Assembly (NCBI GenBank): GCA_041497675.1
Contig: JBGQGY010000048.1
Location: forward strand, 1-23,192
Length of the DNA: 23,192 nucleotides
Reading direction: 5' to 3'
Origin: a bacterium
GTDB lineage: Bacteria; Sysuimicrobiota; Sysuimicrobiia; Sysuimicrobiales; Humicultoraceae
The translations under genes were made by a program, and so were the position numbers. The notes below the pieces were generated by a model that did not search any database, was not told the origin of the DNA, and was given only the letters and a program-made list of their open reading frames with translations. Every line of letters starts with the position of its first letter. The first letter of the stretch is position 1. Below are positions 4,652-21,408 of this stretch, piece after piece.

Positions 4652-7468
4652 ATGGGAACAGGGCTCATCGAGCGCGCGGAGGAGCTATCAACCCTCACCC
4701 GGTTTCTTGATGACCTGCCCAAAGGGCCTGCCGCCCTCCTGCTGGAGGGAGAGGCCGGCATCGGCAAGACGGCCTTATGGATCGAGGGTTTGCAGGCCTC
4801 CCGGGCGCGCCTCCACACCGTTTTGTCTTGCCGGCCGATCGAATCAGAGACTCAACTGCCCTTCGCCAGCCTCGGCGACGCATTAGAGGGTCTGCCGGAT
4901 TCCGCATTCTCAGATCTCCCCACGCCTCAGCGTCGTGCCTTGGACGCCGCCCTGCTTCGTGCAGAACCGGCCACTGGTTCAACAGAACAGCGCGCGATTG
5001 GGCTGGCTGTGTTGAGTGTGCTAAGGACGTTAGCTTCTTCTTCAGTGGTTGTCGTGGCTGTAGACGATGTGCAATGGGTTGATTCCCCGACAGCTCGGGT
5101 CTTCGAGTTTGCGATCCGTCGCCTGCGGACAGAGCCTGTAGGGGTTCTTGTTGCCCGACGCGGCGGGGGTCAAGACAAACTTCCCTTGATGCTTGCGACC
5201 TTCCCTGCCGAGCGGATGTCGCGGGTGAAGCTGGGACCGCTAAGTGCCGGTGCCCTCAATCGCTTGATCGTGACACGCCTCGGCCTTCAGTTCAGCAGGT
5301 CCACCCTTGTGCGGCTTTACGTCGCAACCGGCGGTAATCCGTTCTTTGCACTCGAACTCGCCCGGGCACTCGCGCGCCAGGGCGCAGAGCCGGCACCGGG
5401 CGAGCCTCTTCCGATTCCCGACAGCCTTGGAGCGGTTGTCGGCCATCGTCTGGCTGAGCTTTCCCCGCTGGCACGCGAGGCTGCCGTTATCGTTGCCGCC
5501 CTTTCGCAGCCAAGCGCTCAGATCATCAAGCTTGCCCTCGGCGACAGCGATACCCTCGGGACGCATGCGGCGTTGAAGGAGACGATCGAGGCCGGAGTTC
5601 TCGAGTCTGAGGGTGATCGTATCCGGTTTTCTCACCCGCTCCTAGCCTCGATTCTCTACCAAGGGCTTCTACCCGAGCAGAGGAGGGAGCTCCACCGTCG
5701 TCTCTCGGCTCTGGTCCCCGATTTGGAAGAGCGGGCACGGCACCTCGCGCTCTCAGCGGAAGGAGCCGACGAGCAGATCGCTGCGGTCCTCGAACAGTCG
5801 GCGCACAGGACGAGGGCTCGGGGGGCGCCCGACTCGGCGGCAGAACTTGCTGAGCGGGCACGCCGTCTGACGCCTCCCGGACTCATCGACAATTGGAGGC
5901 GGCGTGGCATCGAAGCAGCAGACTACCATTTTGCCGCGGGCAATACCGGGCGAGCTGCAGAAATTCTTGAAGAAATCGTCACTTCGACGGCTGCTGGTCC
6001 GGCGCGGGCCCACGTGTTGCGGCGGCTGGCTCTAGTCCGCTATCACAACGGTAAGCGACAGGTTATGGCCGATCTCTTCGAGAGAGCACTCAGCGAAGCC
6101 GGCGACGACTTGCGAACGAAGGCCACCGTGGTGCGAGACCAAGCCTGGCTCAGCCACATGCATGGCCAGGTCGTTTTGGGGAGATCGCTCCTGGAACCCG
6201 CAGTCGAGCTCGCCGGGCGTCTTGAAGACACGGACCTGCTGGCCGAGATGCTTCCCATCCTTGTCTTCTCGCAATCAGCAAACGGCATCCGGGACGAGGC
6301 GACTGTGGAACGCATGCTTGCGCTGGAGTCCCGCACAGGGCAGATTGCGATCATTCATCGTCCTGCGTTCGTTCTTGCTGTCCAAGCGAAGTGGATGTTT
6401 CATCTTTCTGCTGCACGGGAGCAAATGGAGAGCCAATATCGACTTGCTTTGGAGGTGGGGGACTTCGGGTCGCTGCCTTTCCTCCTCTATCACTTGAGCG
6501 AATTAGAGAGTTGGGCCGGAAGATATGAGACGGCCTTGCAGCATGCCGAGGAGGGACATGAAGCAGCCGTCCAGACAGGCCAGGAAACCTCCCGCACGCT
6601 TCTCCTGTACTGTCAGGCGCTCGCCGAGGCACATCTAGGAAGGGTGCACGACGCACGTGTCCACGCAGAAGAAGGCCTTATCTTGGCGGACCGTATCGAC
6701 ATTCCGTTGAGAGCTGTACAGAACCTCACTGCCCTTGGGTTCGTCGCCTTGTCCACACAGAAGTTCGACCGAGCCAGGGAATATCATGATGCGCTCCTGG
6801 CCCGGCAGGTCGCTAGAATGGGGCCTTCACCCCACTTCTTCCACAATGTCATCGAGACACTCGTCGCGCTCGGAAAGTTGGAGCAGGCCGCCGCATTGCT
6901 CGTGGAGTTTGAAGAAGGTCAGCAAGACAAACTTTGGGGTGGGTGGGTGCAGGCTATCGCCCGTCGCTGCCGGGCTCTGCTGGCCTCATCACAGGGCAAG
7001 ATGGACGTCGCGATTGCAGACGCAGAAGATAGCGTCAAGCGTCTCGAGCAGACGGAGGTGCCGTTCGATTTGGCACGTTCTCTGCTCGTTCTCGGGACGG
7101 TGCACCGTCGAAGCAAGCACAAGCGGCAGGCGCGAGAGACGCTGGAACGTGCAGCTCAGCTCTTCGACGATCTGAAGGCTGTGCTCTGGGCTCAAAGAGC
7201 GCGCGCCGAACTTGGCCGCATCGGGGGCCGCGCGGCCACGCGGCGGTCACTCACGGAAACCGAGCGGCGCGTCGCACAGCTAGTCGCCAGTGGGCATACG
7301 AACCGTGAGGTTGCCGACACCCTCTTCCTGGCTGTGAAGACTGTTGAGTGGAACCTCTCCCGCATCTATCAGAAACTTGGTGTCCGGTCGCGCAGTGAAC
7401 TTGCAGCCATGTTAGCGACAGCCTCCATTGCCCCAACGAACACGCTGCCGGATAGGCCGGCAACCTAG
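4652..7468 (+). CDS. Large ATP-binding LuxR-family (LAL/MalT-like) transcriptional regulator: AAA ATPase, helical repeats, C-terminal LuxR HTH
   Basis: Walker A GEAGIGKT, Walker B VAVDDVQWVD, TGGNPFFALEL, FSHPL, C-terminal LTETERRVAQLVASGHTNREVADTLFLAVKTVEWNLSRIYQKLGVRSR. Confidence 0.95.
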   Translation: MGTGLIERAEELSTLTRFLDDLPKGPAALLLEGEAGIGKTALWIEGLQASRARLHTVLSCRPIESETQLPFASLGDALEGLPDSAFSDLPTPQRRALDAALLRAEPATGSTEQRAIGLAVLSVLRTLASSSVVVVAVDDVQWVDSPTARVFEFAIRRLRTEPVGVLVARRGGGQDKLPLMLATFPAERMSRVKLGPLSAGALNRLIVTRLGLQFSRSTLVRLYVATGGNPFFALELARALARQGAEPAPGEPLPIPDSLGAVVGHRLAELSPLAREAAVIVAALSQPSAQIIKLALGDSDTLGTHAALKETIEAGVLESEGDRIRFSHPLLASILYQGLLPEQRRELHRRLSALVPDLEERARHLALSAEGADEQIAAVLEQSAHRTRARGAPDSAAELAERARRLTPPGLIDNWRRRGIEAADYHFAAGNTGRAAEILEEIVTSTAAGPARAHVLRRLALVRYHNGKRQVMADLFERALSEAGDDLRTKATVVRDQAWLSHMHGQVVLGRSLLEPAVELAGRLEDTDLLAEMLPILVFSQSANGIRDEATVERMLALESRTGQIAIIHRPAFVLAVQAKWMFHLSAAREQMESQYRLALEVGDFGSLPFLLYHLSELESWAGRYETALQHAEEGHEAAVQTGQETSRTLLLYCQALAEAHLGRVHDARVHAEEGLILADRIDIPLRAVQNLTALGFVALSTQKFDRAREYHDALLARQVARMGPSPHFFHNVIETLVALGKLEQAAALLVEFEEGQQDKLWGGWVQAIARRCRALLASSQGKMDVAIADAEDSVKRLEQTEVPFDLARSLLVLGTVHRRSKHKRQARETLERAAQLFDDLKAVLWAQRARAELGRIGGRAATRRSLTETERRVAQLVASGHTNREVADTLFLAVKTVEWNLSRIYQKLGVRSRSELAAMLATASIAPTNTLPDRPAT

Positions 7469-7526
7469 GGACTTACTGTTGCGAGAACTCGGTCCGGACC
7501 GAGTTGAGATGTCCGCTGCTTCGAGC

Positions 7527-8330
7527 CTAGCTAACGGGTTTAATCCCCCGGAGGTGCACCGTGTAAATGGGGGACTGCCCACCAAACTGCTCGAACAGCC
7601 ACTGGAGGAACTGCTCGGTGAACAGGGGATAGAGCCCGAGCCGCGCCTTGTCGAGCGGGACCCGCTCGCCGAGGGCCTCGACCTTTTTGAACCCCGCCTT
7701 GTCCATCTTGGCGATCAGCGCCGGCTCCGCCAGCGTGCCGGCGAGTCACCCCGCGTAGGCCGCTTCGTTCTCCAGAACCTCTTTGGGGAGGCAGCCGTCG
7801 ATCACCGAGTCGGCGAAGACGAGGCGGCCACCGGGACGCAGGACGCGGAAGCACTCAGCGAACACCCGGCCCTTCTTCGTGGACAGGTTGATCACTCCGT
7901 TACTGATGACCACATCCGCGCTGGCGTCTGGCAGCGGGATCTCTTCCATCGTGCCGTACACGAACTCAGCGTTGGTCAGACCCATCATCGCCGCGTGGCT
8001 TCGGGCGCGATCAAGCATCCGCTCGGTGAAGTCGATGCCCACGGCGCGACCGGTCGGTCTCACGCGCAGCGCGGCGAGCAACGTGTCGATGCCGCCTCCG
8101 CTGCCGAGATCCAGGACCGTCTCGCCGGATCCTGGGTCCGCGTAGCGAACGGGGTTGCCCATTCCGAGCGCCATCTCACGCACCGGAGCGGGTAGCTGCG
8201 CCAGTTCTTCTGCCGTGTACACGCTGTCGGCGACGCCTGTGCCGGCACCTGGGACGACGGCGCCGTAGGCTTCCCGGACGATGCGCGCCGCGTCCTCGTC
8301 AGTCCATTTGAGGGGTGCTTCCTCGGCCAT
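7527..8330 (-). CDS. ArsM-like class I SAM-dependent methyltransferase, probable selenoprotein (Sec195 at TGA 7748-7746; 267 aa)
   Basis: VLDLGSGGGID, GIDFTERML, DVVISNGVINL, RVLRPGGRL. After TGA the frame reads LAGTLAEPALIAKMDKAGFKKVEALGERVPLDKARLGLYPLFTEQFLQWLFEQFGGQSPIYTVHLRGIKPVS to TAG 7529-7527, which matches the ArsM C-terminus (GC-x-AG...AGF...KP). ATG 8330 follows GAGGTG. Confidence 0.85.
7709..7745 (-). promoter_or_regulatory. Candidate bacterial SECIS element directly 3' of the in-frame UGA
   Basis: mRNA after UGA: CUCGCCGGCACGCUGGCGGAGCCGGCGCUGAUCGCCA. UGGCGG(+14..19)/UCGCCA(+32..37) lower stem, AGC/GCU upper stem, CGGC loop at +23. An alternative 7-bp stem CGCCGGC/GCCGGCG is also possible. 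Folded by eye. Confidence 0.55.
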
Positions 8331-8341
8331 GCCCTTCACCT

Positions 8342-8782
8342 CTACTTGATGGCTTTCAGGGCGTCGTCGAGCATCCCGCCGAGCTTCTTTGCCCCGGTCT
8401 GCGCCGCGGCCAAATCCTTCATACCGAGTACGTTCACGCCCAGCTTCGCGGCGTCTTCCGAAATCTTGAGGGCGGCCGCACCCTTGGCGCCGGCGGTCTT
8501 GAGGTCCTTGAGAGCGCCGTTCCCCTGGCCCTCGCAGACGTTACCCCATTTCTTGTCGAAGCGCCTTTCTGTGGGGCCGACCAGACAGTTGACGGCATGA
8601 CCCGTGTGCTGGTACACGCCATTCAGTGAATCGGACGCCGCCGCGAACCCCGCGTGGGTCTTGGCCGTGTTCAACTCGGCCTTCGCCTGATCCAACGGGC
8701 TCATCGGCGCGGCGCTCGACCTCGTGGAATAGGGAGCCAGGATCAGGGCCAAAGCGGCGAGCGAGATGACGACGATGCGCAT
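8342..8782 (-). CDS. Secreted helical protein with His/Cys motif (H...HxxHxxNC...NxC), function unknown
   Basis: ATG 8782 after GAGGGG; signal peptide MRIVVISLAALALILAP...SSA; KTHAG, QHTGHAVNCLVGP, GNVCEGQGNG; ends 11 nt before the methyltransferase ATG. Confidence 0.8.
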   Translation of the reverse strand: MRIVVISLAALALILAPYSTRSSAAPMSPLDQAKAELNTAKTHAGFAAASDSLNGVYQHTGHAVNCLVGPTERRFDKKWGNVCEGQGNGALKDLKTAGAKGAAALKISEDAAKLGVNVLGMKDLAAAQTGAKKLGGMLDDALKAIK

Positions 8783-8898
8783 ATCAGGTTCACCCCTCGA
8801 CAAACGATCATGTACTTTCTAGAGAGTCATCATAGCAGGTTACGCAGCCGCTCACGATAAAGTTCTCGACAAATACAGCACGGGGCGAGGAGACCAGA

Positions 8899-10227: not shown

Positions 10228-10620
10228 TCACCAGATACACGCGACGTCGAACGCGGCAAAAGCGCGATCCTCGGTGAGGAGCGGCACACCCTCGATCTGC
10301 GCTTGAGCGGCCAGCATCCGGTCAAAGGGATCACGGTGGGCCACGGTGAACGCACCCGCCCTCAGTGCGTGCTCAGAGGTCATCGGGAGTTCAATGCCTC
10401 CCAAGCGCTGCAGGTGGCGACGGTAGCCTGCGAGGACCGCTTCGGCTCCCGCGAGCCTGCCCAGGCGGTGCTTCGTGGCGATCTCCCAGGCCGACGCACT
10501 GGAGACGACGACGGTGTTTGCCTGGTCTTCGACGAGCGAGCGGGCCCGCCTAGAGAGTCGCTTTGGCTCCATGAGCGCCCAGAGGAAAACGTGGGTATCG
10601 AGGAGCAGGGTCAGCGCCAC
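10228..10620 (-). CDS. vapC: PIN-domain (VapC family) toxin
   Basis: LLLDTHVFLW, SSASAWEI, HRDPFDRMLAAQA, LLTED; overlaps the antitoxin 3' end. Confidence 0.93.
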   Translation of the reverse strand: MALTLLLDTHVFLWALMEPKRLSRRARSLVEDQANTVVVSSASAWEIATKHRLGRLAGAEAVLAGYRRHLQRLGGIELPMTSEHALRAGAFTVAHRDPFDRMLAAQAQIEGVPLLTEDRAFAAFDVACIW

Positions 10621-15902: not shown

Positions 15903-17129
15903 CTACCGTGCAGTCTCTCGGGCACCCTGCGCCCGGCGCATCAGCGCTGCGCCGGTCAGCGTACACAGTGCCGAGATCGTCAGGATGACTTTGGAACCCA
16001 CCACGGGGAGAAGCAGGCCGCTCAATATCGGCGCGATCACACCGCGTACGCCGACCAGCGTATTGTAGATGGCCACGTAGTGGCGGATTTGGCCAATCGG
16101 CGCGTATTGGAAGACACCCTGCAGCCAGCCCAGGTCGATGCCCGCTGAGGTGAGGCCGTCCGTCACCCCCGCTGCCAGCGCCATCCACGGCGTGGTGGCG
16201 ACCAGGTAGATCAACGGCGTCATGGTGCCGACTACGAAGACCGGGACCACGGCGTGGGTGGCCGGCCTGCGATCCATGAGCCGTCCCCAGTAATAGTAGG
16301 CGACGATCGCGGTCGCGGAGGTCGTCGCACCGAGCAGGCCGACCTGGAAGTTGCTCGCGTGGAGCACGTCGACCAGCAGGATGGGTATGACGGGCGCCAT
16401 GAGCCAGACGCCAAATCCAAACACGAAGAACCCGGCGAGAAACCGCAAAAAGGGACGATCGGTCCGCAGGAGGTGCCAGGTGTCCGTGAGGGTGCTCGGC
16501 GCCTGCCCTGTGTCGGACACTCGCATCTGCTTGAGCATGAACGGGCTGATGATGCCGAAGAGCGCGGCAGCCGCGAACACCCATTGAAACGGCACTTCTT
16601 GCAGGACGCGCCCGCCGACAAAGGCCGTCACCGCCCAGACGAGGGCCATCCACGCGCGCACGAACGCCACGATTCGAGCGCGGACCTCTTGCGGGTACGC
16701 CTCGCGGATCACCTGGGCGTACGCGAGACTGCCGATCGAGGTGACGGTGTACTGCAGAAGAATCAGGCCCACATAGGGTTCCGGCGCGTGGACCAGCGGC
16801 AACAGCAACAAGAGCCCCCGCCCGGCGACCTGCGTGCGGATGATCATGTGCAGGGAGGGCGTGCGGTGAATGGCGTTGGCCCACCAGAGCGAGCCAAGCA
16901 GGCCAATCGAGGGAGCCGCGACGAGCAGCGAGACTTCTAGCGGCGAGGCACCGAGGCGTCGGCCCATGACGGGCACAAACGGGACAGTGAGGCCGGCGAA
17001 GACCCCAAAGAGGATTGCCGCTGTGAGATCCGCCTTGACGCTCGGTCGAATCGCGGGAGGCACCCACCGGAGAACGCGATCCCACACGGTCAGCGCACGA
17101 TCACGACCGCGGCCGCCTGCGTCCTTCAT
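15903..17129 (-). CDS. MFS transporter
   Basis: About 12 hydrophobic segments, WGRLMDRR motif-A-like loop. The start may be a slightly downstream GTG near the upstream gene's stop. Confidence 0.88.
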   Translation of the reverse strand: MKDAGGRGRDRALTVWDRVLRWVPPAIRPSVKADLTAAILFGVFAGLTVPFVPVMGRRLGASPLEVSLLVAAPSIGLLGSLWWANAIHRTPSLHMIIRTQVAGRGLLLLLPLVHAPEPYVGLILLQYTVTSIGSLAYAQVIREAYPQEVRARIVAFVRAWMALVWAVTAFVGGRVLQEVPFQWVFAAAALFGIISPFMLKQMRVSDTGQAPSTLTDTWHLLRTDRPFLRFLAGFFVFGFGVWLMAPVIPILLVDVLHASNFQVGLLGATTSATAIVAYYYWGRLMDRRPATHAVVPVFVVGTMTPLIYLVATTPWMALAAGVTDGLTSAGIDLGWLQGVFQYAPIGQIRHYVAIYNTLVGVRGVIAPILSGLLLPVVGSKVILTISALCTLTGAALMRRAQGARETAR

Positions 17130-18345
17130 GGGTGAGCGTCAACGTGAGGAGGCTTCCCGGCACCGGCAGCAGGCTCACCACCGTCAAGACCGGGATAATC
17201 CCAAAAATCTGGGCCAGCGCGCCCACCGTCCCGACCAGCAGACCACCCATGCCCATCCCCAGGCCCATCATCAGCCCCGCGGCCGTGCTCGCGTGGGTCG
17301 GAAGCAGGCTTTGTGCCTCCACGGTGACAAGCGAGGACGAACCGAACAGGGCGCCGCCCCCCAGCGCCAGCAGGACGATCGACGCCGGCCCGGTGCCGAG
17401 AATCCCTCCTAGGAAGAACGGCGTGGCGAGGAGGAACGAGACGAACAACACCCGCCGCCGGCCATAGCGATCAGACAGATACCCCGCCGCCATGCCGCCC
17501 AGGGCCCCGGCAAAGACCATCGCCGTGATCGCCGCCGCGCCCGTGGTCGCAGGTGCGCCGCGTGCCCGATACAGGAACGGCAGCAGCGCCAGCATGCACT
17601 GGACAACCAGCGAACGCGACAAGACGAGACCCATCAGCCGGATCAACCCGCGGCGGTTCTGACGCAGGGCCGACCGCAGGCTCTCCGGGCTTCCCGAGGC
17701 GCCCGCTCGCTGCGGCGTGCGCAGGTGCCAGGGGACGGCCCGCAGCAGGACGAGGGCCATGATCAACCCGGGGATCGCGGTCACGGCTACCCACGGCAGC
17801 CCGGCGCGCACTGCGATGTACGCGGCGATGAGCGGGCTCAGGGCCTGTCCGGTCTGGCCCGCCATGATGTACGTCGCAAACCGAGTGCCCTTACGCTCGC
17901 CCGAGAGTTGGTGCACCAGCCCGGCCGACTGTGGATGGAACGCGGCGATGCCGAAACCATAAAGGAGGCTCAGGAACGCGAGCGCCGAGTATGATGGCGC
18001 CACGCCGAGCAGCGAGGAACCCAGCACCGTGCTGGCGAGTCCCACCACGGCGACCGAGCGGAGCCGCGCGCTGTCGGCGAGATACCCGAACACGGGTTGC
18101 AGGATCGATCCGCTGATCGTGGAGATCGACACCAGCAGGCCGGCCTGCGCGAGGCTGAAGTGGTGGGCGTCGGCCAGAAGCGGAAGCAGCGCGTTGAGGA
18201 AGTTGACGTACAGGTCGTTGGCAAAGTGCGCAAACATCAACCAGCCAAGCGCACCCGATGCCGCGATCAGGGGCGCCGCGGATGTCGCGGATCTCTCCAG
18301 GGATGCCGCCCCCGCGGGGTTGGCGCTGTCGGTATCGAATCCCAT
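17101..18345 (-). CDS. MFS transporter, Fsr (fosmidomycin-resistance)-like
   Basis: HFANDLY...LLPLL, LQPVFGYLAD, GIAAFHPQS, GYLSDRYGRR. Confidence 0.9.
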   Translation of the reverse strand: MGFDTDSANPAGAASLERSATSAAPLIAASGALGWLMFAHFANDLYVNFLNALLPLLADAHHFSLAQAGLLVSISTISGSILQPVFGYLADSARLRSVAVVGLASTVLGSSLLGVAPSYSALAFLSLLYGFGIAAFHPQSAGLVHQLSGERKGTRFATYIMAGQTGQALSPLIAAYIAVRAGLPWVAVTAIPGLIMALVLLRAVPWHLRTPQRAGASGSPESLRSALRQNRRGLIRLMGLVLSRSLVVQCMLALLPFLYRARGAPATTGAAAITAMVFAGALGGMAAGYLSDRYGRRRVLFVSFLLATPFFLGGILGTGPASIVLLALGGGALFGSSSLVTVEAQSLLPTHASTAAGLMMGLGMGMGGLLVGTVGALAQIFGIIPVLTVVSLLPVPGSLLTLTLTHEGRRRPRS

Positions 18346-18430: not shown

Positions 18431-19651
18431 ATGATCACCTTCGACCATTTGCTTACGGCGCCGTCGTTCTTTCAGAATCCCTATCCGACGTATGATCTCA
18501 TGCGCGAGCAGGCGCCGGTCGTTCGGAGCGAGGCCTGGGGTGGATGGGTGCTGACGAGGTACGCGGACGTGGTCGCCACCCTGCGCGATCACCGGCGTTT
18601 CTCAAACAAAGGTCGAGTCGACCACATGTTGGCTCACGTGCCTGAACACGCGCGGGCTGAGGCCGGCACCCTCGAGGCGCACTTTGCCGCCAACCTGGCG
18701 CACGCCGACCCACCGGATCACACGCGCATGCGCGCGCTGCTCAATCGCGCGTTTACACCCCGGCAAATGGAGAAGATGGTACCGCGCGTGCAGGCCGTCG
18801 TCGACGCGCTGCTCGATCGTGTGGACGCGCGTGGGGACGGCCGGATGGACGTGATCGCCGACCTGTCCTTCCCGCTGCCGGCCACCATTATCGCTGAGAT
18901 GATCGGCGCGCCGGGCGACGACAGCATGCAGTTCCAGGACTGGGCGAACGGCGTGAACCAGTTATTCAGCAGTGTGGGCCGCGCGACGGCGGGACAGGTC
19001 GCGACGGCCCAGCAGCACGTGGAGGGTATTCGCGCCTACACGCTGCAGCTTGCCCATCGCCGCCGCGACGAACCGCAGGACGACCTGATGACGATGCTGA
19101 TGGAGGCCGTGAATCAGGGGACCCTCAGCCTGGACGAGCTCGTCTCGACCGTTGTCACACTGTTCATCGCCGGGCATGAGACGACGACCTACACGCTGGC
19201 GAACGGCGTCCTGGCCCTGCTGCGTCACCCTACGCAGCTTGACCTGCTGCGCGCGCATCCGGACCTGATGGAATCTGCGGTCGAGGAGATCTGGCGGTAC
19301 GATACGCCGGTCCAGCGCGGTTGGAAACTCGCGACTGAGGATGCCGAGATCGACGGACACGGCATCCGAGCAGGCGAGCTCGTCCTGCCCATGCCGGGCG
19401 CCGCCAATCGCGACCCGGCGCAGTTTCCGGAACCTGCCCGGTTCGACGTGACGCGCAAGGATAACCGCCACGTGGCGTTCGGATATGGCATTCACTTTTG
19501 TATTGGCGCGCCGCTCGCCCGCGTTGAGGTCCCGGTCGCCCTGGCAAGCCTCCTGCGGCGGTACCCCGATCTCCATCTGGCCACGGACGCGCTCGAGTGG
19601 CGACATGATGTCGCTATGAGGGGGCCCGTTCGATTGGAGCTGCGTTACTAG
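18431..19651 (+). CDS. Cytochrome P450 (bacterial, CYP107/BioI-like)
   Basis: [14 protein letters not shown]-helix AGHETT, EEIWR (ExxR), ANRDP, heme motif [16 protein letters not shown] before ATG 18431. The track start at 18029 overlaps the MFS gene and is spurious. Confidence 0.96.
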
Positions 19652-21408
19652 GCGACGGGTGACGGTTTGGACGAGGTGGCGGCGGGTACGATGAGCGCCG
19701 AGTGTGCCGCGGTCCCGGTTTCTTCGAGCAGACTCCCTGCCGATTCGGCATCCTGTGGATATGCGAAGTAGTGACCCTGTCCGTACGTGCAATCCAGCTC
19801 CTGGAGGAGCGCCACCTGGTCCGCCCGTTCGACGCCTTCGGCGACCACGTCCAGCCCGAGGGTGTTGGCCAGGCTGGTGATGGCGCGCAGGACCTGAGAG
19901 CCGTCCGACGACGACGTGTCCAGCTCAGCGACGAAGGCACGATCGATCTTGACCACGTCGATGGGGAACCGCTGGAGCAGACTGAGCGACGAGTAGCCTG
20001 TCCCGAAGTCGTCGATCGCCACCCGAAGCCCCATCGCGCGTAGGGTGGCAAGGGTCCGCGCCGCGTCCTCGGCATCCTCCATGATCGCGCCCTCAGTGAT
20101 TTCGAGCATCAACCGTGACGGCTCCAGCTGCGACTCCTGAAGCAAGCGAGTGACATTCTGGACGAGGTCGGCGTGCGCGAGTTGACGGCGCGAGAGATTG
20201 ACGCTGATCCATAGCGGCGACCGCGTGGGATACGTGGCCCGCCATTGACGCAACTGGCGCCAGGCCTCGCCCAGGACCCACTCGCCGATAGGGATGATCA
20301 GTCCGGTCTCCTCGGCGACCGGGATGAACTCACTGGGCAGAACGGTGTGTCCCTGCGGATAGTTCCAGCGGGCCAGCGCCTCGAAGCCCACCACTCTGCC
20401 GGTCTGGAGGAGCACGATCGGTTGATAGACGAGGCTGAACTCCTTGCGGTCGAAGCTGCGCCGCATGGCGGTTTGCATCTGGAGCGTCTTCAGCACTTCC
20501 TGCCGCATCTCTTCGTCGAACACCTGGTAGGTGCCCCTGCCGGAGTTCTTGGCACGATACATAGCGGTGTCCGCGTTTCGCAGCAGTGTCTCCGGCTCGG
20601 CGTTTTCCTGTGGGGCGACCGCGATCCCCAGGCTCACCGTGATGAACACTTCCTGCCCACGCAGGTGGAAAGGGTGTTCGAGCCGCTGCTTGATGCGTTC
20701 GGCTACGAGGACGGCGTGACGCGCCCCGGGCAGGTCTTCGAGCAGCATGCCGAACTCGTCGCCGCTGAGCCGGGCGATCGTGTCACCCTGACGCACGCAC
20801 GTCGTCAGCCGACGGCCGAGGTCCGCCAGCAGTTGATCTCCGGCGCTGTGGCCAAAGCTGTCGTTGAGGAACTTGAACCGGTCCACGTCCATGAAGACGA
20901 CGGCAAACCCCGACGCATTCTTGCGACCGGCGCGGTCCACGACATGACGGAGCCGGTCCATGAAGAGCGTCCGGTTCGGTAGTCCGGTGAGCGGGTCGTG
21001 GATGGCGCTGGACTGAAGCTTTTCGGTCATCTTCCGCAGGCTGCCGGTCATTTGATTGAAGGACGTCGCCAGGACTTCCAGCTCGTCGTTGGTCCGTATG
21101 GTGATTTGCGTGTCGAGATTCCCGTCCGCCACGGCGCGGGTCCCGGCGATCAGCATGGCGATGGGGCGTGTGATGGTTCGCACGAGCACGTAGGTGAACG
21201 CCGCCGCCCCCAAGAGACCGAATCCGATCCCAAAGGTGAGGCGGTTGTTGGCGGTCATGGTGGTCACGATCGCCCCGAACATGATCAGAAGCCAGCAGAC
21301 GATCAGGAGGATGAACTTCCCGTGCAGACCGATACGAAGGAGAAATCTGCGGTGAATAGGATCCGACGCTCCCGGTGTACCGACCGTGGCCAATCCCCGA
21401 GCCTCCAA
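19648..21408 (-). CDS. Membrane-anchored HAMP-GGDEF-EAL c-di-GMP metabolising protein
   Basis: 2 TM, HAMP (ITRPI...[13 protein letters not shown]), [15 protein letters not shown]-site with [35 protein letters not shown]; exact start uncertain. Confidence 0.95.

Follow-up and report, generated by a model that had tools for sequence, protein, structure and literature searches.

A selenocysteine-containing ArsM-like methyltransferase in the Sysuimicrobiota that probably differs in function from canonical arsenite methyltransferases

We analyzed a 23,192-nucleotide stretch of DNA from a bacterium of the Sysuimicrobiota (hereafter the window; positions 1 to 23,192 of contig JBGQGY010000048.1, assembly GCA_041497675.1), in which a methyltransferase gene on the minus strand contains an in-frame TGA at 7748-7746. 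A preliminary description had proposed that this TGA encodes selenocysteine (Sec) at the conserved catalytic cysteine position of the arsenite methyltransferase ArsM. Comparative sequence evidence makes it highly probable that the internal TGA does encode Sec: the TGA column is shared among orthologs, TGC forms occur in that column, the Sec machinery is present in the genome, and a SECIS-type hairpin (SECIS, selenocysteine insertion sequence) follows the codon. With somewhat less assurance, though still with good confidence, we propose that the product is an S-adenosylmethionine (SAM)-dependent methyltransferase with a single selenol, that it belongs to a separate ArsM-like subfamily whose UGA is decoded by SelB and a SECIS, and that its substrate is held by one Se-X bond.

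The coding sequence extends from ATG at 8330-8328 to TAG at 7529-7527 (8330..7527, minus strand) and, with the Sec codon internal, translates to 267 aa. Before the TGA the frame reads ...NEAAYAG; after it, the frame runs on for 72 sense codons and a stop (7745..7527, minus strand) to the end ...VHLRGIKPVS, an extension that comprises the last helix and two beta-strands. The read-through protein contains, in this order, the motifs G-U-L-A-G-T, AGF and a terminal KP. When the sequence was re-read and translated, the coordinates, counts (72 codons, 267 aa) and motifs of the preliminary description were all found to be correct, while the Sec peptide that it gave, starting AYAGU, was in error, as the tryptic peptide begins EVLENEAAYAGU..., after the K of LPK. 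The start used in the open reading frame (ORF) listing is GTG 8339, which yields 270 aa; ortholog starts (MAEE.., MSD..) match the Met of the ATG, not the GTG. Sec is accordingly residue 195 counted from the ATG and 198 counted from the GTG, and it falls in the column of Cys224 of the Cyanidioschyzon enzyme (CmArsM), as had been claimed.

An assembly error does not explain the TGA. It is bridged by contigs of two other DNA runs, one covering 7630-8377 with no differences (X2 record 10) and one covering 7300-8377 with two differences, at 7914 and 7991 (X3 record 15). A different letter at 7746-7748 was found in none of the four runs compared, a comparison of contigs rather than raw reads in which rare variants would stay hidden; TGC, TGT or TGG, named beforehand as evidence against Sec, did not appear there. 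A ~96%-identical variant in run X17, which is only guessed to be RNA, retains the TGA, and 16 sediment-metagenome runs contained half or more of the words sampled from the stretch.

The best 19 matches to the read-through protein in 41 related genomes each contained exactly one in-frame TGA. Across 94 genomes of the phylum, the TGA-bearing gene was present in full length at 29 places, spread over 28 genomes, and in part at one further place; two orthologs were free of the stop. An alignment of 30 members was built from 28 TGA loci and the two stop-free loci, leaving out the second copy of one genome (G038) and the partial copy of another (G059). In this alignment, the TGA occupied one shared column in 28/28 aligned orthologs, with the context AAYAG-U-LAG or AAWAG-U-[LI]SG, and both stop-free orthologs (L047 and L048) had TGC in that column. 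The three-Cys ArsM paralogs of the phylum likewise had Cys there (23/23), so that the homolog comparison suggested in the preliminary description returned either TGA or Cys at this position. The selA gene was detected in 24/28 TGA genomes, the four misses being 59-88% complete, and in 0/2 Cys-form genomes (72% and 83% complete); because related genomes are not independent, we treat this co-occurrence as a consistent pattern and attach no statistic to it.

The protein is conserved through the terminal ...KP in 30/30 members. The frame after the TGA is open and conserved in the 28 orthologs, at 43-88% identity, and the ratio of nonsynonymous to synonymous substitution rates (dN/dS) in this part was 0.22-0.78, below 1 in 8/8 pairwise comparisons. 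Furthermore, TGA serves as the true terminator of the methyltransferase gene in 11/30 family members, which argues against a general recoding of TGA.

The complete set of genes for Sec synthesis and insertion, selA, selB, selC and selD, was found in the source genome, in line with what the preliminary description had proposed to look for. The selA gene (536.6 bits; contig C24:23715-25061) adjoins selB (361.5 bits; C24:25097-26962), and ~2.5 kb past selB, ARAGORN called a tRNA-SeC(tca) whose extra arm is long (C24:29512-29607); the Rfam model RF01852 also recovered it, scoring 62.8 bits where the gathering score is 47. The selD gene (393.6 bits; C39:15011-15934, locus L007:1441-1680) itself has one in-frame TGA, which was read in the context ...MVACAGUASKLPPG. 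The CAGUASK site is the known Sec/Cys position of SelD, and with selD itself Sec-containing, the genome has at least two selenoproteins. On another contig, ARAGORN also reported a 94-nt tRNA-like gene, 'tRNA-?(Glu|Arg)(tc)' (C26:1353-1446), whose extra arm is long and whose anticodon loop is irregular; it may be either an artefact or an atypical tRNA.

A candidate SECIS, CGCUGGC-GGA-GCCGGCG (7735..7719, minus strand), lies 11-27 nt past the UGA and consists of a 7-bp stem and a 3-nt loop starting with GG, with an energy of -10.6 kcal/mol and 17 nt from the UGA to the loop. The bSECIS model, as set out in PMC13188914, calls for an apical loop of 3-9 nt, an upper stem of 4-16 bp, a G in the first two loop positions, a UGA-to-loop distance of 16-37 nt and a minimum free energy (MFE) of at most -7.5 kcal/mol, and the candidate lies within all of these bounds. 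The hairpin was picked from a comparative alignment, the single-sequence MFE favoring another pairing. We compared two groups of sequences, clade A (the window gene and eight other sequences) and clade B (19 sequences). In clade A, 63/63 cells of the hairpin were paired in the nine sequences, as against 19-48% for slid partners, and one pair varied on both sides (UA, GC, GU), a Pro/Gln/Leu codon change being compensated by a synonymous change on the opposite side. In clade B, a different hairpin, of 9 bp with the loop CGUGU, is located 21 nt past the UGA (-10.3 kcal/mol) and was 97.1% paired, as against 25-65% for slid partners. The Cys-form ortholog L048 has an identical peptide at the hairpin region, yet 4/9 of the clade-B stem pairs are absent from it.

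The protein belongs to the ArsM/AS3MT superfamily of class I SAM-dependent methyltransferases and has an ArsM-type C-terminal part. Pfam assigned Methyltransf_31 (2.5e-30), together with Methyltransf_11 and Methyltransf_25, and both the SAM motif, DLGSGGG, and the NP motif are retained. An AlphaFold (AF2) model built from the 30 family sequences had a predicted local distance difference test (pLDDT) score of 91.7, a predicted TM (pTM) score of 0.91 and seven beta-strands. Strands 6 and 7 (residues 215-225 and 255-263) come after Sec, in a modeled block with pLDDT of 88-97, and a 194-aa product would thus miss part of the core sheet. The first 11 Foldseek matches were all ArsM (headed by 4fr0, 6cx6 and 5evj at TMq 0.68-0.75; all 11 at 0.67-0.75), and the best solved relatives found by phmmer were the ArsM proteins of Chlamydomonas (1.7e-27) and Cyanidioschyzon (5.9e-21). 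In these alignments, Sec was matched with the Cys of 'GECLAGAL' or 'GECLGGAL' in the 5evj and CmArsM chains.

To the extent that the preliminary description implied arsenite methylation, the remaining residues did not agree with it. HMMER alignments placed Met at the CmArsM Cys72 position ('GCGNP') and Gly at the Cys174 position ('SNCV'), and no Cys is found within N-terminal residues 1-60, so that only one of the four ArsM cysteine positions (44, 72, 174 and 224) is kept, position 224, as Sec. The same pattern was found in 30/30 family members, with M, L or V at 72, G at 174 and U or C at 224, as opposed to C, C and C in 23/23 of the stop-free paralogs of the phylum that were compared. According to PMC6138428, As(III) methylation depends on each of the four conserved cysteines, with Cys174 and Cys224 together making up the metalloid site; a phylogenetic survey of ArsM, as described in PMC5552862, accepted only proteins with at least three of the four. 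The best NCBIfam match was NF008823, arsenite methyltransferase (1.8e-64), at 217.8 bits, below its cutoff of 263. Six further subfamily members scored 193.5-242.3 bits, so that 7/7 members fell below the cutoff, while two of two canonical paralogs used as controls exceeded it (359.9 and 270.2 bits). A maximum-likelihood tree, rooted at the midpoint for drawing only, set 35 single-chalcogen rows apart from 25 canonical rows with a support of 100/99. Single-Cys members from other phyla (labelled Chloroflexota and Actinomycetota) fell within the single-chalcogen clade.

The source genome also carries a three-Cys ArsM (C10:50539-51366) that is 42% identical to the Sec protein and contains N-terminal CC pairs, LGCGAP, SNCVINL and TACIGGA. 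No ars genes were found among the 15 window ORFs scanned, and L043 (ArsR-family/rhodanese regulator) was the only relative with an ars-type neighbor, an association that is common for arsM genes and not a strict requirement. Because the subfamily conserves no chalcogen ligand other than this Sec or Cys, the canonical three-thiol As(III) site cannot form. Given the missing cysteines and the scores under the NF008823 cutoff, the protein is ArsM-like in fold only and is not a demonstrated arsenite methyltransferase; judged from its residues, its function is probably not canonical arsenite methylation.

The truncation by standard annotation that the preliminary description had foreseen was readily apparent. 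When the 120 best matches among 5.8 billion clustered proteins were examined, 119 of them stopped at ...A[YF]AG, right before the Sec column, with query coverage of at most 73%, and 117 had the L/M and G pattern at the Cys72 and Cys174 positions. Their names were 'methyltransferase domain-containing protein', 'SAM-dependent methyltransferase' or 'arsenite methyltransferase'. A word-based search with the C-terminal part alone returned no matches. When the C-terminal 95 residues were used in an exhaustive profile search, 600 proteins were returned at E <= 0.001, including many ORFs of 57-100 aa that start just past the Sec column (P0139, P0143 and ~30 more) and a few full-length single-Cys forms; gene callers thus call the post-TGA part as a separate ORF in public catalogues. 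A scan of species-representative genomes, which covered the best 80 of at least 600 matches and therefore says little on Sec forms outside the phylum, yielded 75 three-Cys ArsM loci, two Sec forms matching L053 and L054, and three single-Cys loci (labelled Anaerolineaceae, Limnocylindrales and Nitriliruptoraceae); none of the 75 had TGA at the 224 position. Because the stored sequences of this branch end at the Sec codon, it would be missed or misnamed in surveys of selenoproteomes and arsenic genes that work on called proteins.

The gene neighborhoods of the relatives offered hints to the substrate. In clade B (L029-L040 and L046-L054), an extracytoplasmic function (ECF) sigma factor gene (21 loci) and a zf-HC2 anti-sigma gene (20 loci) precede the Sec or Cys methyltransferase gene; after it there is often a CMD/AhpD-like gene (12 loci), a DUF1326 gene (6 loci) or a gene of the PpoB2 family PF09948 (5 loci). 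Clade A contexts differ from these and from one another: an ArsR helix-turn-helix/rhodanese regulator and a cation-efflux gene at L043, the PpoB2 family at L044, a LysR regulator at L028, an IclR regulator at L045 and an epoxide hydrolase at L024. In addition, a TusA-like C-terminal tail was found in the single-Cys proteins P0130, P0134 and P0136, and a Cupin_2 tail in P0137 and at locus L095.

In the mechanism that we propose, SelB with Sec-tRNA(Sec) would decode the UGA at 7748-7746, directed by the hairpin at 7735-7719, and the resulting selenol would occupy the site of the metalloid-binding Cys224. The substrate would then be bound via a single Se-X bond beside the methyl group of SAM and be methylated there. 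One candidate substrate would be a one-ligand species such as dimethylarsenite, DMAs(III), or another organoarsenical. As reported in PMC6138428 and PMC3877260, DMAs(III) needs one thiol only and is weakly held by Cys224 alone, which makes the third methylation, a step that would come after the three-Cys ArsM of this genome, a candidate. The other would be a compound of sulfur, selenium or tellurium, for example a persulfide or a selenide, at which the TusA, AhpD-like and rhodanese links of the relatives, together with their sigma/anti-sigma operon of thiol-stress type, hint. The organoarsenical and chalcogen candidates are about equally likely, and sequence data cannot separate them.

Several observations weigh against this proposal. 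Constraint was weaker after the TGA (dN/dS 0.22-0.78) than before it (0.08-0.23). As a single sequence, the 62-nt region folded no better than its shuffles (z = 0.06; 105/200 equal), and covariation was thin, with one double-changed pair per hairpin, a level that shuffles reached in 383/500 cases for clade A and 193/500 for clade B. As the hairpins differ between the two clades, no single SECIS is common to the family, and over 7400-8400 the best Rfam match, at E 2.6, did not rise above chance. The TGA is also covered in a metatranscriptome library, by a 151-nt contig (X18; 7630-7778), but this contig reaches just 30 nt beyond it on one side and is a weak hint of transcription rather than proof. 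The TusA matches scored 20.4, 28.6 and 29.0 bits, at about or below the Pfam cutoff of 28.6. Finally, the substrate proposal rests on the context of relatives, the neighbors in the window being unrelated and not conserved.

We weighed these points against other explanations. If the TGA were a true stop, the gene would encode a 194-aa truncated methyltransferase or be a pseudogene, and the frame behind the TGA would be a relic. Gene callers do end there, as do 119/120 best matches, separate small ORFs past the Sec column occur in some catalogues, and the single-sequence RNA fold is not significant. We nevertheless consider a true stop extremely improbable, given a frame that stays open and conserved in 28 orthologs with dN/dS < 1, a 194-aa product without beta-strands 6 and 7, a Cys at this place in the orthologs without the stop and in every paralog, and complete Sec machinery. 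It is just as hard to credit that the TGA is read as a standard amino acid (Trp, Cys or Gly) through a variant code or near-cognate suppression, although the frame would be open under any code that gives TGA a residue. TGA terminates this same gene in 11/30 members, reading it as a residue elsewhere leads to implausibly long fused frames, its presence coincides with that of selA while Cys is found in the two genomes without detected selA, and a SECIS-type hairpin stands at the expected distance.

Accepting Sec, the enzyme could still be an ordinary ArsM that simply has Sec in place of Cys224 and detoxifies inorganic As(III). This agrees with NF008823 as the best NCBIfam match, with ArsM as the best match in the PDB by both sequence and fold, with Sec at the UxxG position of the known Sec-ArsM, and with the name 'arsenite methyltransferase' that truncated relatives bear in some databases. 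We consider it unlikely, since position 224 is the only one retained in 30/30 members of a family in which four Cys would be needed according to PMC6138428, the score of 217.8 bits lies under the curated cutoff, the screen described in PMC5552862 demands at least three of the four Cys, a separate three-Cys ArsM is encoded in the source genome, and the scanned ORFs of the window lack ars genes. A bolder version of our own proposal, which we advance tentatively and think doubtful as a whole, is that the members of the single-selenol subfamily are no arsenite methyltransferases but a new type of enzyme, with Sec recruited in one phylum and with a substrate held by one Se-X bond. That substrate could be a persulfide or selenide delivered by TusA or AhpD-like partners, giving products of the methanethiol or methylselenol type, or it could be DMAs(III), converted to trimethylarsine. 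Recruitment of Sec may have occurred twice, because the SECIS hairpins of the two clades differ and Cys forms branch between them.

The surroundings of the gene in the window differ from those of its relatives. A Shine-Dalgarno-like GAGGTG (8342..8337, minus strand) is located 6 nt 5' of the ATG and overlaps the stop (8344-8342) of an upstream co-oriented ORF of 153 aa (8803..8342, minus strand), which has a signal-peptide-like N-terminus and matched no Pfam family. As this stop is only 11 nt from the methyltransferase ATG, co-transcription of the two genes is possible. Within the upstream ORF, a 78-nt stretch (8407-8486) is diverged at equal length in a related-strain contig of run X17 that matches both flanks, and it looks like a variable segment. 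Downstream of the methyltransferase gene lies a converging LuxR/AAA regulator gene, and farther out in the window are a cyclophilin (peptidyl-prolyl isomerase) gene and a beta-lactamase-family gene. No conserved neighbor of the window gene, the 153-aa ORF included, was found beside the 31 other loci searched. A scan for promoters and terminators found no promoter-like site, and one weak terminator-like site (7464-7444), located inside the end of the convergent gene, was not taken as evidence. Elsewhere in the window, a 130-aa PIN-domain (VapC-like) ORF (10228-10620, minus strand) overlaps the end of the beta-lactamase-family frame and may be the toxin of a toxin-antitoxin pair. Two adjoining major facilitator superfamily (MFS) transporter genes were found at 15903-18345 (minus strand), beside genes for a cytochrome P450 (18029-19651, plus strand) and a HAMP-GGDEF-EAL protein (19648-21408, minus strand).

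Homology-based counts of 'arsM' would take this branch as arsenic methylation capacity despite the missing arsenite-site residues. Furthermore, one selenol as the sole conserved ligand provides a simple test case for the use of Sec over Cys outside redox enzymes, for which natural Sec and Cys orthologs are on hand for comparison.

The preliminary description had left room for novelty at the level of the family, and here it has to yield to earlier work. The verified prokaryotic selenoproteins listed in PMC13188914 include 'arsenite methyltransferase' (NF008823, motif UxxG, WP_011987699.1), which is credited there to Fomenko et al. 2007, and the GOS survey gives eight Sec forms of arsenite methyltransferase against 245 Cys homologs (PMC2398784). 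NCBIfam has three more models of Sec-ArsM type, namely NF041537 (ArsM/AhpD), NF041536 (ArsM/DUF2284) and NF047649 (methyltransferase/UXPK-star), which the same list credits to Haft and Tolstoy 2025 (PMC13188914). With a Sec-containing arsenite methyltransferase of motif UxxG already established, no novelty can be claimed for the family. The branch described here may already be catalogued in BSepDB, whose paper does not mention methyltransferases in its text, and the main text of two descriptive papers on the phylum (PMC11604079 and PMC11962464) contains no 'selen-' words.

Compared with the Sec-ArsM of PRK11873/NF008823 type, as listed in the sources above, the window protein has the same superfamily, a UxxG Sec (here U-L-A-G), decoding by SelA, SelB and SECIS, and common Cys homologs; it and its 29 relatives lack equivalents of Cys72 and Cys174, which may set them apart from the listed example WP_011987699.1. 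It shares the fold of the canonical ArsM/AS3MT enzymes (CmArsM, 4fr0, 4fs8 and 6cx6; CrArsM, 5evj; human AS3MT, 8xt7), at TMq 0.63-0.75 and 26-34% identity, but it is shorter (267 aa versus ~320-390 aa for the solved chains), lacks their N-terminal Cys-rich segment and ars context, and keeps one of the four cysteine positions, as Sec. With the fused families NF041537, NF041536 and NF047649, as they are described, it has in common a methyltransferase domain with a UxxG Sec, and the CMD/AhpD-like gene found just downstream at 12 clade-B loci echoes the ArsM/AhpD fusion of NF041537. It differs from them in scoring far below their cutoffs (169.3/510, 150.4/575 and 160.3/460 bits, respectively) and in having a single TGA, no fused domain and no second Sec. 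The single-Cys members found in other phyla (P0131, P0134, P0136 and P0137; L084, L095 and L097) share the motifs LGVG(N/D/H)P, (S/T)NGV and AAWAGC and the same C-terminal domain, but carry Cys and, in some cases, extra C-terminal domains. Altogether, the window gene and its relatives apparently form an undescribed, systematically mis-annotated single-Sec branch of a known kind of selenoprotein.

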